DNA of 31,017 nucleotides from a virus (Duplodnaviria > Caudoviricetes), in IMG/VR virus record IMGVR_UViG_3300046488_000087, positions 1-31,017 of that record, one strand, 5' to 3'. The translations under genes were made by a program, and so were the position numbers. The notes beneath the pieces were generated by a model. The model searched no databases, was not told the DNA's origin, and was given only the letters and a program-made list of their open reading frames with translations. The stretch's first letter is position 1; every line of letters begins with the position of its first letter. Positions 3,017 to 17,629 of the stretch are shown one piece after another.

Positions 3017-3874
3017 TTATGCGAGCGAGTCCCAGGCCCCCTCAAGCTGGTCTCCGGCTTCCCGGAAGTCCTTGGGATGGATGGTTCCCTTTGCTGCACC
3101 CTTGGAGCCGCCCTCTACGACGGTCTTTCCACTGATGCCTTTTTTAAGTTCGTCTAGACGGGTGTTAGCCCGCTTCTCCACAATGGAATCAAGTGCTTCG
3201 GGGTGGAGGTCGTAATATGTTGCTTTCACAAGACGTACGATTTTTTCAGGTGAGTCCACCGCCTTGTCGGACAGTGCATCGACCCTCTCCTGTAGTTCGA
3301 GGAACAGCTCATCACGATCTGGGCCGGATAACTCAACACCCTCTTTTGTAAGGGCCGTAAGGCCACTTTCGAGTGCGGTATCCGTTTCACCGAGCTGTTG
3401 CTTCTCTGCGTACGAGAGAGAAGATTTCACGCCCTCTTCCAACTCCGCGAGTCTGGTTTTCAATGCAACCACTTCGGGGTCGGGTTGAGCAGCAAATGGG
3501 TCAAACGTGGGAGCTTCCTCTTTTACGGGGGGCGCCGGTGTTTCCAGTTGCTTCTTGAGTGCGTAAAATTCTGCCTTCTGACGGTTTAGGGCTTGCGCCT
3601 TCGTGTCATAGTTGACGCCGTACGAAGCCCACTTTAGAAGTTCGGCCTGGTCTTTAGGTGTCCACTCCTTCCCCGCTGCCTTGAACTTGAACTTGGAACC
3701 ATCCCACTGCGCCACTTGTGAAGGGGCGTTCTCAGTTGATGATGGCTGCTCCGTTCCTGCGTCGTCGGGGGTTACAGGCTGTTGGGCCGCGAGGGCCTGA
3801 GTTTCGTCCGTATCGGTGAAGAACGATTCAGGACTTCCCGACGTTACAACGTTGCCTTTGTCTTCCAATGGCAT
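3017..3874 (-). CDS. Capsid scaffolding protein
   Basis: 285 aa, acidic disordered N-terminus, coiled-coil, GVNYDTKAQAL motif typical of scaffolds; directly upstream of the capsid gene. Confidence 0.75.
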   Translation of the reverse strand: MPLEDKGNVVTSGSPESFFTDTDETQALAAQQPVTPDDAGTEQPSSTENAPSQVAQWDGSKFKFKAAGKEWTPKDQAELLKWASYGVNYDTKAQALNRQKAEFYALKKQLETPAPPVKEEAPTFDPFAAQPDPEVVALKTRLAELEEGVKSSLSYAEKQQLGETDTALESGLTALTKEGVELSGPDRDELFLELQERVDALSDKAVDSPEKIVRLVKATYYDLHPEALDSIVEKRANTRLDELKKGISGKTVVEGGSKGAAKGTIHPKDFREAGDQLEGAWDSLA

Positions 3875-3893: not shown

Positions 3894-4460
3894 TTATGTC
3901 CAATCTTCGGTCAGGTATTGCCCTGCCAGTGCGTTAATCTTGTCCATGTTCTTGCCTGTCCAGACGTTGTGTTTAACGCTGTCATGCAGGGTTGAGGGAA
4001 TATAAATTACGTCCTCCTTGTTAATGTGATGCCCGTCGCTGTTGGGAAACCATGAGTTCAGGAGGTTCCAACCAAGAAGGCGGCGTTTGGCGCGAGACTT
4101 TCTCCAAGACACTCCCTGACCGCCCCTCCAATTTCCAATAGATATCTTGGCGCGGGTTTCGGGAGACATAATGCGCCCCATCAGCGTGGCAGACGTTTTT
4201 GCGCGAGTTTCAGGGGATGGATTCGCGTGCGCAACGCACAACCTTGCACATGTTTCCGGCGATGCTTTATGGCCGGTAAGTGTGGCAGATATCTTTGCCC
4301 GTGTCTCGGGACTCGTAATATGTCCCTTCTGTGCCGCAGATACCTTCGCCCGAGCGACATCAGATTGCGGAACCCCCACGTGCGGATTAGAGCGTCCGGT
4401 GAGAGATGCTGATATTTTCGCCCGCATTTCGGGAGTGCGAACGAATGCGCCCTTGGGCAT
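3894..4460 (-). CDS. NUMOD3-repeat HNH-like homing endonuclease
   Basis: Repeated SPETRAKISA (NUMOD3) motifs plus C-terminal DGHH...LH...HN. Paralog of 17054-17629. Confidence 0.75.
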   Translation of the reverse strand: MPKGAFVRTPEMRAKISASLTGRSNPHVGVPQSDVARAKVSAAQKGHITSPETRAKISATLTGHKASPETCARLCVAHANPSPETRAKTSATLMGRIMSPETRAKISIGNWRGGQGVSWRKSRAKRRLLGWNLLNSWFPNSDGHHINKEDVIYIPSTLHDSVKHNVWTGKNMDKINALAGQYLTEDWT

Positions 4461-6621: not shown

Positions 6622-7955
6622 TAGAGCCTCCTCATCCAAATGTTTTCTTCCTTGTTGGCGGCAAATATCCCCGCGATTCTTTTAGCTGCAGCAGACATCA
6701 TGGGAACTGGACTTACTCGCGCCCGCTCCATTTGTGCTTTGTACTGCTTCCTCCCCATGAGTCCGTACCTTATGGCGTCCATGAGGTCATCGGCTTCCTT
6801 GAGGGGCTTCCCGTTACGCCAGACATAGTTCCGTGCCTCATCTTTCGTCTGGAGGCAGGTGTCCATGAGGCAGAACTCCCCCGCGTTTATCATTCTGGAG
6901 ACCTCTGAGATACCCTTGTCCACATCGTTGATGGCGGCAAGAAAGGCGATTTCAAGGCCGTTCTTCTTGAGCCACTTCTTCATCTCTGCGGCTCCCTGTG
7001 GGTTGGAGGGGTCGTAGTACACCCTGCGGACACGGTACTTCATCAGGGGTTCAAGGTTGTTCTCTACGTGCGTCTCGTAGTCGATGGCGGACGCCTCGTA
7101 TTCCCTGAACTGGTACACGACCCCGTTTTCCTCAAAGAAGTAAGCGAGGGCCGTAGGGTGCCCAAACCCAAAGTCCATGCCGCACCAGACTTCGGCGTTC
7201 TCTGGAGGTTCGCGGTAGGGGATAATGGAGCCTTTTTTCAGGTCGTAGACCAGCCCAATTGCTGCCGTGAACTCTCCGAGATACCGCATCGCAAATTCTG
7301 CGGGGGCCATCTCTTTCCGCAGCCGCTCGAACTCTTCTTTTGGAAAGGCGGGATTGGCGGTAGAGGGACACTGGATAAACTTGTAGGCGGGGTTTCCGCT
7401 CTTCCATTCCTCATACGGTTCGTCTGCAAGCCATGCCTGCGTCTTCCCTGGATAGGGGGTACTTAGTCCGCAGAGCTGTCCGTCCCTCATTAGAATTCGA
7501 GACTGCAAGGCAATCCACACCTGCCTGCGGCACTGTGCTATCTCGTCGATGATAATGCCATCATACTGGCCGCCCTCAAGAAGGTCGGGTTTGTCGGCAG
7601 AACCGAAGAAGATTTCGTAGTTCGTTCCAGCGTAGCAACGCCTCTTCTCCGACCATGCACCCTTGAGCGGGGTGTGGTCAAAGTAATCTCTGACATACGG
7701 CTTGGCAATCTGTTCGACAAACTGGAAAGAAGGCTCTGTTACGAGATACCTTCCGCCGTGCTTTTTCCGCATCAGACGCATAAGCTTGATGGGGATTGAT
7801 GAAGACTTTCCAGCGCCCGAACCGGCAATGAACATCAGGTAGGTCGTCAGGCAATCGTCGAGGTATTCCCTCTGAAACGGGTTGGGGTCTTCCTCAATAC
7901 CACCAGTGGGAGATATTCTCCATAGTACCGGTTTGCCCTTGGCGTCAGTCAGCAA
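6621..7955 (-). CDS. terL: Terminase large subunit
   Basis: Walker A GSGAGKS, Walker B IIIDE, nuclease motifs GMDFGFGHP, YYDPS and DDLMDAIRY. Confidence 0.93.
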   Translation of the reverse strand: MLTDAKGKPVLWRISPTGGIEEDPNPFQREYLDDCLTTYLMFIAGSGAGKSSSIPIKLMRLMRKKHGGRYLVTEPSFQFVEQIAKPYVRDYFDHTPLKGAWSEKRRCYAGTNYEIFFGSADKPDLLEGGQYDGIIIDEIAQCRRQVWIALQSRILMRDGQLCGLSTPYPGKTQAWLADEPYEEWKSGNPAYKFIQCPSTANPAFPKEEFERLRKEMAPAEFAMRYLGEFTAAIGLVYDLKKGSIIPYREPPENAEVWCGMDFGFGHPTALAYFFEENGVVYQFREYEASAIDYETHVENNLEPLMKYRVRRVYYDPSNPQGAAEMKKWLKKNGLEIAFLAAINDVDKGISEVSRMINAGEFCLMDTCLQTKDEARNYVWRNGKPLKEADDLMDAIRYGLMGRKQYKAQMERARVSPVPMMSAAAKRIAGIFAANKEENIWMRRL

Positions 7956-8959: not shown

Positions 8960-9111
8960 GTAGAAGCCATCCCTTGATGTATTGGCAAGTAGTCAGAGGG
9001 TATAGGTGATTGGAGATGCCTGCACTGCACACTACCCGCGCCTGGCATGATGTGAACACCGCCCGAACCCTTGCCCTATCACCCGAAGAGCCTTGACTTA
9101 GGAAACCCCTA

Positions 9112-9139
9112 TTGACAGGTTAACGGATACCCGTATGAT
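9112..9139 (+). promoter_or_regulatory. Sigma70-type early promoter
   Basis: TTGACA, 16-nt spacer, TATGAT, upstream of the plus-strand block. Confidence 0.65.
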
Positions 9140-9267
9140 ATGGACAGGCGAGCAGAACACACAGCCCGCGCCTAGAAGAGCAAGCGCCTTGACAACCAAC
9201 CACAGCGAAGCCACCGAGAAGCCCGCAGCAATCGCGGACTTAGGTTAAGCCGACCCCGCACCACTAA

Positions 9268-9311
9268 GTGATACACTGACGGCAGCCTACGGGTTGCCGT
9301 GAACGTATCGC
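9268..9311 (+). promoter_or_regulatory. Long hairpin with internal loop (RNase III-like processing site), copy 1
   Basis: GTGATAC-ACTG-ACGGCAGCC-TACG-GGTTGCCGT-GAAC-GTATCGC; the flanks are shared with 9669-9711. Confidence 0.55.
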
Positions 9312-9342
9312 AGAGAGACCCGACAGGGAAAGGAGAAACAAC

Positions 9343-9669
9343 ATGAGCCGACCCGTTGACCTCAACATGGGAACCACCGAAGGGCTAAACGCCGAATGGG
9401 AAGCAATCCAACAGAAATGCGAATACACCATGAAAATGGCAGAGAACCAACAGAATGGACAAACAAAGGTACAACACCTCCACGTATGCTACGACACACG
9501 GCGCGGCTGGTTTGGCTACGTCTGGAACCTCTGGTTTGAGAACGGAAACATCGTAGCAGACGAGACCGCCGACCTGTCATTTGCAAACTGGGATGGTGAT
9601 AAAGACCCCCGCAACTACCTGAGACGTTTTCAGCCTCGTCTATCTCGTTGGACGTTAACCTCCTGCTAG
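9343..9669 (+). CDS. Early hypothetical protein (108 aa)
   Basis: AAGGAG RBS; first gene after the early promoter. Confidence 0.75.
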   Translation: MSRPVDLNMGTTEGLNAEWEAIQQKCEYTMKMAENQQNGQTKVQHLHVCYDTRRGWFGYVWNLWFENGNIVADETADLSFANWDGDKDPRNYLRRFQPRLSRWTLTSC

Positions 9670-9711
9670 ATATGCTGAAGGGAGCTGGCACACGGCTCCC
9701 TTGAACGTATC
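9669..9711 (+). promoter_or_regulatory. Long hairpin with internal loop (RNase III-like processing site), copy 2
   Basis: GATATG-CTG-AAGGGAGCTG-GCACA-CGGCTCCCTT-GAA-CGTATC. Confidence 0.55.
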
Positions 9712-9746
9712 ACGTAGAACGAGCGCAGACGCGCAAAGGAGTTGAC

Positions 9747-10013
9747 ATGACTACACTAGCCGCAACCCACCACATGACACCCAAAGGAGCCACCGCCGTT
9801 TTACTCGCATTCAATAAGCACGTTGGAGAGGCTGGCGGCATCATCATCATTGACCGACCCGAAGGACTCCAAGGACACTACACCACCAACCCCGGGAACA
9901 TGGCGGGCCGGATGGTTATGATTGACACCTTGACGCCTCTTGACCCGCCCGAACTCAACGACCCCGCCACCCTTGCTGATGCAGTTAATACCGCACTAGA
10001 CAACGCTGACTGA
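9747..10013 (+). CDS. Early hypothetical protein (88 aa)
   Basis: AAGGAG RBS. Confidence 0.7.
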   Translation: MTTLAATHHMTPKGATAVLLAFNKHVGEAGGIIIIDRPEGLQGHYTTNPGNMAGRMVMIDTLTPLDPPELNDPATLADAVNTALDNAD

Positions 10014-10076
10014 CTGCCCGACGAGCCGGAAACGGCGAAACACGGCCAACGAGACACTCCCGCGCCGTGTCGCAGT
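10013..10076 (+). ncRNA. Hammerhead ribozyme, type I topology, U4C core variant
   Basis: Stem I ACTGC/GCAGT; core CCGACGA; stem II GCCG-GAAA-CGGC; GAAA; stem III CACGGC/GCCGTG; GUC triplet with predicted cleavage after C10071. Confidence 0.85.
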
Positions 10077-10139
10077 AGGTCTCGAAACGAGACCGTCTAC
10101 CCCAGAGAGCCGAGAGGCTAGGGGTTAAAGGAGCAAGCA

Positions 10140-10577
10140 ATGAATACACTGGCCAGCGTTTGCGCACGAGACATCCAGACCGACGACCTTATGAGAGAAG
10201 GGGTATTTGCAATCCTCGGCGGAGATCATGTAGTAATGTTCAAGGACGGTTCAATGCTTCTGGACGCACACAAGGACGAAATCACCGTTACCGAAGTAAT
10301 GGCGCGTCACGGCTACACTCGCTACGCGCTTATAAATGCGGGAGCCGAAATGACCTTTTGGAATCTCCGGCACGGCCTCCCTTCCGAGTTGTTCGTTCGT
10401 GAGAACGGCAAGAGCTACCACGTTGTGATGTTCACTGGATGGGAAAGCGAGAACGGGAACCAGATGAGACAACACCCCCGCTTTCTTGAAGTCGAAGACG
10501 TTACAAAGGTAGTGCAAGCCTGCAACGAGGCGGAAGAAATCAGCGACGAAGATTTAGAGGCAGTCGAAGGCTTCTAA
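10140..10577 (+). CDS. Early hypothetical protein (145 aa)
   Basis: AAGGAG RBS; acidic C-terminus. Confidence 0.75.
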   Translation: MNTLASVCARDIQTDDLMREGVFAILGGDHVVMFKDGSMLLDAHKDEITVTEVMARHGYTRYALINAGAEMTFWNLRHGLPSELFVRENGKSYHVVMFTGWESENGNQMRQHPRFLEVEDVTKVVQACNEAEEISDEDLEAVEGF

Positions 10578-10689
10578 CCGTCTGACCTCTTCACGGCAGC
10601 CAGCCCCCAGGACTGGCCACCGCGAGCAGGCCAACAGCCTACCCTACAGACGGCAGCCGGAGCCGAGAGCCGGACAAGGAGAACAAGAC

Positions 10690-10878
10690 ATGAACAGCAC
10701 ATTGAGGGTATTCGCGCGGGATCGGTTTACCTCTGAGGTTGCGAAAGCTTGGAAGGCCGACGGCGAAGGAAACACGGTAGAAAAGCGGAGACACCTAAAA
10801 GAGGCCGACGCTATCGCCTGTTACGTTTTAGGCGCTTACTCGCTCGCTGACTTTGCCTTTGTCACTGGGGCGGCATGA
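10690..10878 (+). CDS. Early hypothetical protein (62 aa)
   Basis: AAGGAG RBS; ATGA overlap with the next ORF. Confidence 0.7.
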   Translation: MNSTLRVFARDRFTSEVAKAWKADGEGNTVEKRRHLKEADAIACYVLGAYSLADFAFVTGAA

Positions 10879-10994
10879 ACGGCGCAACACTTGAAATCTT
10901 GCAGATTGAATGGGAGAGGGCATGGATGGGTGGAGACTTTGCCACGGTGACGCGCATTGACAACGCCCGCGCGATTATAGAAGGACTGCGCTAG
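10875..10994 (+). CDS. Small hypothetical protein (39 aa)
   Basis: MNGATLEILQIEWERAW...; ATGA coupling to the previous ORF; not in the ORF track. Confidence 0.5.
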   Translation: MNGATLEILQIEWERAWMGGDFATVTRIDNARAIIEGLR

Positions 10995-11030
10995 AGGGCC
11001 GCACGGCGGCTAGGCGCATGGGAGGTTATC

Positions 11031-11204
11031 ATGTCAGACAACAACATAAGGGAAATCATTGACGCACTGAACGACGGGCTTGACCTCTGCATCGCTCTTG
11101 AAAAGGCCAACACAGAACATGTAGGAAGAATCAACGTAATCGAGGTAGAGGACGGCCTGCTGAACTCCAAGAACCTGCTGTACGACTTGCTGAATGAGAT
11201 ATAG
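11031..11204 (+). CDS. Small acidic hypothetical protein (57 aa)
   Basis: GGAGGT RBS; MSDNNIREIIDALNDG... Confidence 0.65.
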   Translation: MSDNNIREIIDALNDGLDLCIALEKANTEHVGRINVIEVEDGLLNSKNLLYDLLNEI

Positions 11205-11287
11205 GAAGCCGAAGATGAGACTATGGAGCGCACTACCCGCCCGAAGGCGGCGGGAGATCATCAACAAAATCCTTAAGGAGGTATGCG

Positions 11288-11416
11288 ATGAGTAAATCAC
11301 GGAACCGCTGGACATTCTACGACAAAATCGAAAAGGCTCCACGCTTTGGACGTAGAGCCTTTCTTAGAACCGACCGCAAGCAGTATAACCTTGAGAGGTA
11401 CGTATGGCAAGTATGA
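11288..11416 (+). CDS. Small basic hypothetical protein (42 aa)
   Basis: AAGGAGGT RBS; MSKSRNRWTFYDK... Confidence 0.55.
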   Translation: MSKSRNRWTFYDKIEKAPRFGRRAFLRTDRKQYNLERYVWQV

Positions 11417-11514
11417 CACTCCCGCCGGTTGTGTGCCCGTGGCAGGGGTACGAGGAATGCAAAAACTGCGGACTGTACGGAGCTTGTTTCCCCTTAGAGG
11501 TGAAGCATGACTGA
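11404..11514 (+). CDS. Small Cys-rich protein (36 aa)
   Basis: GAGGT RBS; C-x7-C-x2-C-x5-C pattern. Confidence 0.45.
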   Translation: MASMTLPPVVCPWQGYEECKNCGLYGACFPLEVKHD

Positions 11515-17053: not shown

Positions 17054-17629
17054 ATGACAGACGAACAGAAAGCAAGGTTGTCTGTGGCACTAATGGGGCA
17101 CACGGTATCGCCTGAAACCCGTAAGAAGATTTCTCTTATAAATACCGGTCGTGCCCAGTCTCCCGAACTGCGGGGGAGAAAATCCGCCACGTTGATGGGG
17201 CATACGGTGTCCACGGAGACTCGCGCAAAGATTTCTTTGGGGAATATGGGAAATACAAAATGGTTAGGTTCTCACCATTCGGCAGAAACTATTGCCAAAA
17301 TCACCGCGTGGAATCGAGGCAAAATTGTTTCTCCCGAAACGCGGGCAAGAATATCTGCTGGTCTGTGGAAGGGTGGCCAGATGATTGCCAACGGGCGACG
17401 TCGTGCCAAACGTCGCTCAATGGGGTATGTCTTTCTAAACAAATGGTTTTCCGGCTGCGACGGCCACCATGTGGACAATGAACAAATTATCAATATGCCA
17501 AGGAAATTGCACCGAGGCAAAGGAAACGGCCACAATCATTATACCGGAAGGGGTATGGCTCGAATGAATGCCATTGCATACAACTTTCTTTTCAAACAAG
17601 AGGTCGAAGCGGCCTTAGGGGTGAACTGA
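17054..17629 (+). CDS. NUMOD3-repeat HNH-like homing endonuclease
   Basis: SPETRKKIS / ETRAKIS repeats plus DGHH...LH...HN. Paralog of 3894-4460. Confidence 0.75.
   Translation: MTDEQKARLSVALMGHTVSPETRKKISLINTGRAQSPELRGRKSATLMGHTVSTETRAKISLGNMGNTKWLGSHHSAETIAKITAWNRGKIVSPETRARISAGLWKGGQMIANGRRRAKRRSMGYVFLNKWFSGCDGHHVDNEQIINMPRKLHRGKGNGHNHYTGRGMARMNAIAYNFLFKQEVEAALGVN

Follow-up and report, generated by a model that had tools for sequence, protein, structure and literature searches.

The intergenic region behind the open reading frame (ORF) at positions 9747–10013 raises the question of whether it encodes a self-cutting RNA and, if so, how fast that RNA would cut and whether its cutting is controlled. 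We use the term window for the whole stretch of DNA analysed, which is 31,017 nucleotides long. The 31-kb virus record is that of a tailed phage. A PHROG/Pfam search of the window placed capsid, portal and large terminase genes on the minus strand, up to position 7955, and primase, helicase and nuclease genes on the plus strand from 14384. Short ORFs without known function run on the plus strand after a sigma70-like promoter match, and the element lies between the second and the third of them. The candidate promoter (TTGACA-16-TATGAT, 9112–9139, +), a consensus match only at 11 of 12 positions, would stand at the head of this early operon. The upstream ORF (9747–10013, +) encodes 88 aa and the downstream ORF (10140–10577, +) 145 aa; neither has a family match in PHROG or Pfam. 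A blastn search of 9260–10150 against GenBank phages gave no matches. All 20 sequencing runs listed with the stretch are labelled peat metagenome. Eleven runs, drawn from 10 studies, lack the mark of a possible source, and no RNA run is among the runs listed as carrying it. Two homing-endonuclease-like genes (PHROG 314) are found at 3894–4460 (−) and 17054–17629 (+), one of them inside the head-gene cluster. Related capsid, portal and terminase fragments, with 70–79% DNA identity, occur in a MAG labelled Candidatus Cryosericum (L318/G006; contigs C1, C61 and C74), which could be a weak hint to the host or a product of mis-binning.

Judged from its sequence, the segment 10013–10076 (+) is a type I hammerhead motif with predicted cleavage, an ordinary kind of known self-cutting RNA, and its core change (U4C) is itself not new in print. 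All hammerhead parts follow directly on the upstream ORF, each at the position assigned to it by an earlier sequence-only reading, and the TGA stop (10011–10013) overlaps the 5′ strand of stem I at the first base of P1. That strand (ACTGC, 10013–10017, +), defined by sequence, fold and descriptor scan, is followed on the plus strand by the core C3–A9 (CCGACGA, 10018–10024), with C for U at position 4 (10019) and C at the free position N7. Stem II (P2; GCCG-GAAA-CGGC, 10025–10036, +), identified by fold and descriptor scan, has 4 bp and a GAAA loop; the GAAA that follows (10037–10040, +) was assigned by the descriptor scan to G12-A13-A14-A15.1. Stem III (P3; 10041–10070, +) joins CACGGC (10041–10046) to GCCGTG (10064–10069) through 6 bp plus A15.1-U16.1 and holds a 17-nt insert, consisting of an internal loop (CAAC/CCGC) and, at the apex, a small variable stem to which part of CGAGAC belongs. 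The GUC triplet (10069–10071, +) is the predicted cleavage site and, by the hammerhead consensus, the predicted scissile bond follows its C17 (10071–10072, +). The 3′ strand of stem I (GCAGT, 10072–10076, +) gives a helix of 5 bp, as against 6 bp in close relatives. Next come a lineage-specific 20-nt insertion (10077–10096, +), which is bounded by a GT repeat, holds a hairpin (10078–10094) and displaces nt 1.6 and 1.7; a hairpin with a GNRA loop (10100–10124, +) that is conserved in the hammerhead family; and the Shine-Dalgarno-like AAAGGAG (10127–10133, +), recognized from sequence and family comparison. The start of the downstream ORF is 68 nt past the predicted cut.

The three stems surround the core and stem I is open, as in type I, and C3-G8, G5, A6, A9, G12, A13, A14, A15.1-U16.1 and H17 are all present. 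The internal loop above stem III (C[CAA]Y / G[C]G; 10047–10063 in the window) is present in five of six close members and resembles a C-loop. Reading the GAAAC and GTC of the insertion as part of another hammerhead register was rejected, as stem II would then have 1 bp. The one core base missing is U at position 4 (C10019), which we do not take as excluding type I membership because a passage of PMC3088659 reports it as a natural variant of the class. With respect to the tertiary contact of stem I with stem II, U1.7 is absent and no pseudoknot with the GAAA loop is apparent; a contact of another kind may exist.

A descriptor scan that allowed any base at position 4 gave a single match in the whole window; in 200 dinucleotide shuffles, the descriptor was matched by 2 at the loosest setting and by none at three stricter ones. 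Folding predicts the hammerhead with the hairpin behind it (z −3.66 for 10008–10100), and a hammerhead-compatible fold lay 0.1–2.5 kcal/mol from the ensemble in 15 of 15 flank lengths. A model (R2) built from 11 unrelated type I phage hammerheads, and independent of the window's family, scored the window at 41.9 bits (E 2e-10, a rough value) and canonical relatives at 44–57 bits. Rfam returned no hammerhead match in a gathering scan of the window or in E-value scans of 9500–10600 and 9000–11100, which gave only chance miRNA/lncRNA rows. We attribute the position of the window below the Rfam gathering cut-offs (clan CL00010) to limited Rfam coverage, since canonical relatives (five loci) are missed too, with a best score of 22.1 bits against a cut-off of 48.5. 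The element is identical in all three viral contigs (L001–L003) and in L113, and four sequencing runs showed no differences, contigs of three spanning it and the fourth covering it in two pieces; these data rule out an assembly error.

The family of the element was assembled through terminase relatives and a pattern scan, and 22 of 28 metagenome pattern matches were dropped for want of a core. Seven further distinct members were obtained (L096, L100, L103, L109 [= L090/L091], L121, L223 and L095), all in the early operon and all with the canonical U4 core except L095, which has C4. Wherever the terminase region is visible, the predicted ribozyme is on the other strand and upstream of that region. 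The three related genomes that are at least 90% complete have one hammerhead each, and G003 among them has the window's own version. In L090/L091 the motif is an island 91% identical to that of the window, set between flanks that cannot be aligned. Compensatory stem changes are seen in L223 and L095; a pair count is omitted for this family as the MAFFT alignment put L095 in the wrong place. The family pattern had no matches in prokaryote genomes. The independent model, the syntenic relatives and the compensatory stem changes together support the hammerhead, its core CCGACGA and its GUC site as originally proposed.

The same layout recurs despite differing flanking genes: an upstream stop, the predicted ribozyme, a hairpin, a Shine-Dalgarno sequence, and a start 38–68 nt past the cut. 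The upstream stop falls at −8 to +4 nt of C3 in seven of the eight family members, though the upstream genes differ. Stops are similarly close in some unrelated type I hammerheads too, and may reflect merely compact genomes. Stop codons placed in stem I, or using the core's own UGA (L223, L175), are frequent in the family and in L146, L175, L140 and L166. L095 has two hammerhead copies flanking one gene, the additional copy lying one gene upstream. The gene encodes 95 aa, the copies are of type I and lie at 3068–3120 and 2675–2735 (−), and a strong sigma70-like promoter immediately precedes them. At the former site the core is canonical and an A-C mismatch opens stem II; at the latter, U4C is joined by an AA bulge in stem I. 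A homolog of the downstream 145-aa gene, 69% identical, is found on the L007 contig (38% complete) with no hammerhead in front of it or elsewhere on that contig, indicating that the gene does not depend on the ribozyme. Carriers of the window's version are near-identical over 9733–11500, with three differences from L087, L092 and L113, none of them in the element. The terminase proteins of phages sharing this block differ by up to 11%, pointing to a recent spread of the early block by recombination.

Compared with five close relatives, the window alone has U4C and the 20-nt insertion. The insertion lies between nt 1.5 and 1.6 of stem I (compare L103), and as a consequence position 1.7 is G and U1.7 is lost. 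In our view the insertion would act more probably through this change at 1.7 and the shortening of stem I to 5 bp, an effect that the sequence-only reading missed. Among family members the hairpin-bearing insertion is confined to the window's lineage, and no copy of its hairpin with up to three mismatches was found elsewhere in the window or in fetched loci outside that lineage. An 8-nt direct repeat is shared by the insertion (10086–10093) and loop III (10048–10055), with no other plus-strand copy in the window and a chance of approximately 3.5%. This repeat suggests that the insertion arose by local duplication or template switching, an event that would create both the hairpin and the complement to loop III without selection.

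A survey of viral contigs with fixed geometry, a 4-bp stem II and a GAAA loop (100 matches in 99 loci) served to place both departures. Of 48 distinct canonical hammerheads in this survey, all with GAAA as loop II, 46 had U1.7. Full folds were obtained for 71 of 78 matches with U at position 4 (48 distinct) and for 5 of 9 with C (3 distinct, one being the window's), compared with none of 8 with G and none of 5 with A. As a control, transitions at G5, A6 and A9 (95 matches, 94/95 loci) gave one full fold among 18 non-canonical matches, the G5A copy L304. Three distinct C4 folds against one over three control positions is a borderline excess (approximately 0.05, binomial); when the window's copy is left out the comparison becomes two against one and is not significant. 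Of the 74 loci from a looser scan, three were the window's own lineage and four were unrelated type III hammerheads with C4 (L016, L055, L074 and L078) whose stems and U1.7 are intact; the remaining 67 pattern matches were set aside, 55 having no fold and 12 weak or long-range pairings only. C4 has likely arisen twice, in the window's lineage and in L095, since the stems of L095 differ and it is distant on the terminase tree. The L304 copy (176–231, −), of type I, has U1.7 and faultless stems; with G5A, the classic inactivating change, it is likely a dead natural hammerhead.

A viroid variant with U4C is described in PMC3088659 as considerably less active in vitro and still infectious, and none of the 50 MS2 escape mutants in the pertinent part of PMC4075628 was changed at position 4. 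From these two reports and from the intact stems and U1.7 of the four type III C4 copies, U4C appears tolerated. The deep mutational scan of one hammerhead summarized in PMC9901934 found all single changes in the CUGA turn to be low in activity, so U4C combined with loss of U1.7 could leave the ribozyme effectively dead. In solved structures U1.7 and the tetraloop of loop II are joined by a Hoogsteen pair, a contact that a section of PMC11875169 describes as rate-enhancing; a heading of the same paper calls U1.7 not essential in the trans enzyme used there. U1.7 is present in just four of the eight family members (it is missing also in L100, L121 and L095), and on the strength of this count and that heading its loss may matter little. 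Our limited search of the literature yielded nothing on phage U4C variants beyond the papers cited.

We hold, with somewhat more confidence than doubt, that the element is a slowed copy from a processing cassette conserved among related phages, and that the early messenger would be cut after C10071 slowly or partially. U4C and the loss of U1.7 each predict slow cutting, and with both present, the second through the hairpin insertion, slow or partial cutting is likely. Attenuation is expected in particular because U1.7 is so regular in the canonical hammerheads surveyed, because it makes the rate-enhancing contact according to the section of PMC11875169 cited above, and because the window has G in its place. 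The inserted hairpin would fold independently and would weaken the docking of stem I with loop II rather than pair with loop III. The intergenic type I hammerhead would cut the early polycistronic message. The upstream message would then terminate with stems II and III and a 2′,3′-cyclic phosphate; the downstream message would open with a 5′-OH and six free bases, and two hairpins would precede its ribosome-binding site. Once cut, the downstream genes would no longer be tied to the upstream ones in stability and translation, and the downstream message would gain a fixed, probably more stable 5′ end. 5′-OH ends resist 5′-monophosphate-dependent nucleases. The ends named are those given for hammerhead cleavage in PMC6765202, and the processing of long phage transcripts is presented as a proposed, unproven role in the relevant parts of PMC3088659 and PMC6765202. 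A ribosome terminating at the TGA (10011–10013) would hold the ribozyme open until release; cleavage may wait for that release because such a ribosome would cover stem I and the core. Counting against the reading as a slowed cassette are the near-identity of its carriers over 9733–11500, the G5A copy in L304, and the L007 gene that does without a ribozyme.

The same observations bear on the alternative that the ribozyme has decayed, with U4C and the insertion as recent inactivating or neutral changes in one lineage, useful cutting lost, and importance left to the hairpins and the ribosome-binding site alone. We regard such decay as possible and on balance unlikely. It would explain why two departures meet in one copy, neither being found in the five close relatives, why the window has the lowest R2 score of the close family, and why the insertion has the look of a local duplication or template switch, with an 8-nt loop III repeat unique to these two plus-strand sites. 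It also draws on the low activity of CUGA-turn mutants in the scan cited from PMC9901934 and on L304, which shows that a G5A copy with perfect stems can sit in the same collection. Against decay, the three stems and all the remaining core positions of the window are intact, and C4 recurs with intact peripheries, in three distinct folds against one for the controls, although this argument loses significance when the window's copy is removed. Furthermore, the cassette is carried by phages whose terminases differ by 11%, indicating that it spreads.

A quite improbable alternative is that the element cuts about as well as its relatives, either because the inserted hairpin or its flank offers the GAAA loop II a new partner or because no such contact is needed. 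L095 combines C4 with a different periphery (a bulged stem I and a long stem II), and the absence of U1.7 in L095, L100 and L121 fits a dispensable contact. A distal GAC/GUC pairing can moreover lengthen stem I around the hairpin, at −36.3 kcal/mol compared with −35.7 kcal/mol for the hammerhead plus hairpin. However, the register that restores G2.6-C and a U at position 1.7 costs approximately 4 kcal/mol, and, since relatives that lack the insertion have the 5′ GAC copy too, the two did not co-evolve. The considerable reduction of in vitro activity reported for U4C in the passage of PMC3088659 also argues against near-normal cutting.

The sequence-only reading had further proposed that a pairing between loop III and the tail competes with the hammerhead as a pseudoknot or folding switch. 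Its two premises hold: CGAGAC in loop III (10050–10055) can form six Watson-Crick pairs with GTCTCG (10079–10084), a helix that can be continued into the 3′ strand of stem I, and GGTCTCG-AAA-CGAGACC (10078–10094) forms a hairpin by sequence and predicted fold. The complementarity is only weakly above chance, since at least six pairs with loop III are expected for 4% of random 20-nt and 9% of random 40-nt stretches of the genome. As a switch, loop III would capture the emerging GUCUCG as a pseudoknot and block docking, the second hairpin arm would displace it, and pausing or a ribosome would set the fraction cut. In its favor, loop III departs from the relatives in exactly the CGAGAC stretch, and before the second arm is made the pairing is favored by approximately 4.6 kcal/mol, a rough figure with the duplex-initiation penalty only; brief co-transcriptional pairing is therefore possible. 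The kinetic window for it is merely about 10 nt. No complement to loop III of at least 5 nt is found in the 40 nt after stem I in any of the seven relatives, the longest loop III/tail complements being 4, 2, 3, 3, 3, 2 and 1 nt, and in two of the seven loop III is only GAAA. Among these relatives the alternative pairing is neither conserved nor covarying. Nor are the two folds similar in energy: at 37 °C the pseudoknot lies approximately 6 kcal/mol above the hammerhead plus hairpin as a bare 6-bp duplex and approximately 4 kcal/mol with terminal stacking, and at 15 and 4 °C it lies 9–11 kcal/mol above, rough values that exclude the pseudoknot loop terms, which would cost extra. Loop III is itself structured, with bases of CGAGAC needed in the local apical stem under the internal loop that relatives keep (CAAC/CCGC), and local duplication explains both the hairpin and the complementarity. 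The switch is thus not supported, and we consider it very doubtful. A limited search of the literature for natural hammerheads under the control of an upstream stop codon or of a loop III pseudoknot gave nothing beyond the papers cited. We give least credence to a version in which the recent 20-nt duplication turned a constitutive hammerhead into a co-transcriptional timer, with loop III holding the first arm until the second strips it away and a ribosome at the stem I stop gating folding; if this were true, transcription speed and upstream translation would set the share of early messenger cut, and a natural regulated hammerhead would have been caught at its origin.

Two further structured motifs were observed in the operon of the hammerhead. 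Motif A is found on the plus strand of the window at 9265–9314 and 9664–9716, and also in L004, L100 (two copies), L109 (two aligned copies and a third, partial one) and L121. Its long hairpin has an outer stem that is conserved, an inner stem that covaries freely and is capped by UNCG/GNRA-type loops, and between the two a 5x5 internal loop (RYUGA / YGAAC), likewise conserved; the motif always stands directly before a small hairpin, a Shine-Dalgarno sequence and the start codon of an early gene. In eight copies, both sides change in 8 of 12 pairs and 95.8% of cells pair; the fold z values are −6.2 and −4.0. Scans of the window and of 9000–11100 assigned it to no Rfam family, and it is absent from two more distant relatives searched and from the L007 contig. 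A kink-turn was considered and did not fit the consensus by eye. Motif A is a candidate for an RNase III-type processing site, a protein-binding site or a ribozyme of unknown kind. The stem of one motif A copy in L109 (2773–2839, −) carries CACTCCCGCGCC, as does the 3′ side of stem III in the window, which suggests that the intergenic modules may exchange pieces. Motif B (about 10577–10680 in the window, +) is intergenic, follows the 145-aa gene, and occurs also in L100, L109 and L121, with 97% identity over 75 nt to L090. It consists of a conserved UGACC..UUCA, a variable stem and CGCGAGCAGGCCAACAGCC; covariation is seen in 1 of 23 pairs, with four sequences only, and there is no Rfam match. 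Conserved as they are in this operon and lacking Rfam matches, motifs A and B may deserve attention.

The closest known systems are the type I hammerheads in intergenic regions of phages and prophages, which, as described in parts of Perreault et al. 2011 (PMC3088659), have the same open stem I, closed stems II and III, core bases and GUC. Those of haloviruses HF1/HF2 in that account occupy the same place: in an early operon, where short genes lie on either side and a start codon follows. The window differs from the phage hammerheads presented there in its C4, in having no pseudoknot between stems I and II, in its 5-bp stem I followed by an inserted hairpin, and in the lack of an Rfam match. 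The U4C viroid hammerhead (Ambros and Flores 1998, as referred to in PMC3088659 and PMC4075628) has the same core change. It is a replication ribozyme, whereas that of the window belongs to the messenger of a DNA phage and also lacks U1.7. With the hammerheads that use the Hoogsteen contact of loop II and U1.7 (O'Rourke et al., as cited in a section of PMC11875169), the window shares a GNRA loop II on a 4-bp stem II. The close relatives L096, L103, L109 and L223 also keep U1.7, next to a stem I of 6 bp, whereas the insertion gives the window a G at 1.7. RiboJ-type synthetic insulators have the layout ribozyme, hairpin, ribosome-binding site. Self-cutting RNA, hairpin and ribosome-binding site would likewise fix the downstream 5′ end in the window. 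RiboJ is named as an insulating ribozyme in PMC5737548. Compared with those insulators, the predicted ribozyme of the window is natural, type I and intergenic.

The role of self-cleaving ribozymes in phages is called an open question in the relevant part of PMC6765202. The family offers a matched natural series, made up of canonical members (L096, L103 and L109), one with U4C plus a stem I insertion (the window) and a separately built U4C member (L095), in which phages that tune cutting rates may be distinguished from phages that let their ribozymes decay. The stop codon inside stem I, in addition, makes translation-coupled cleavage testable.
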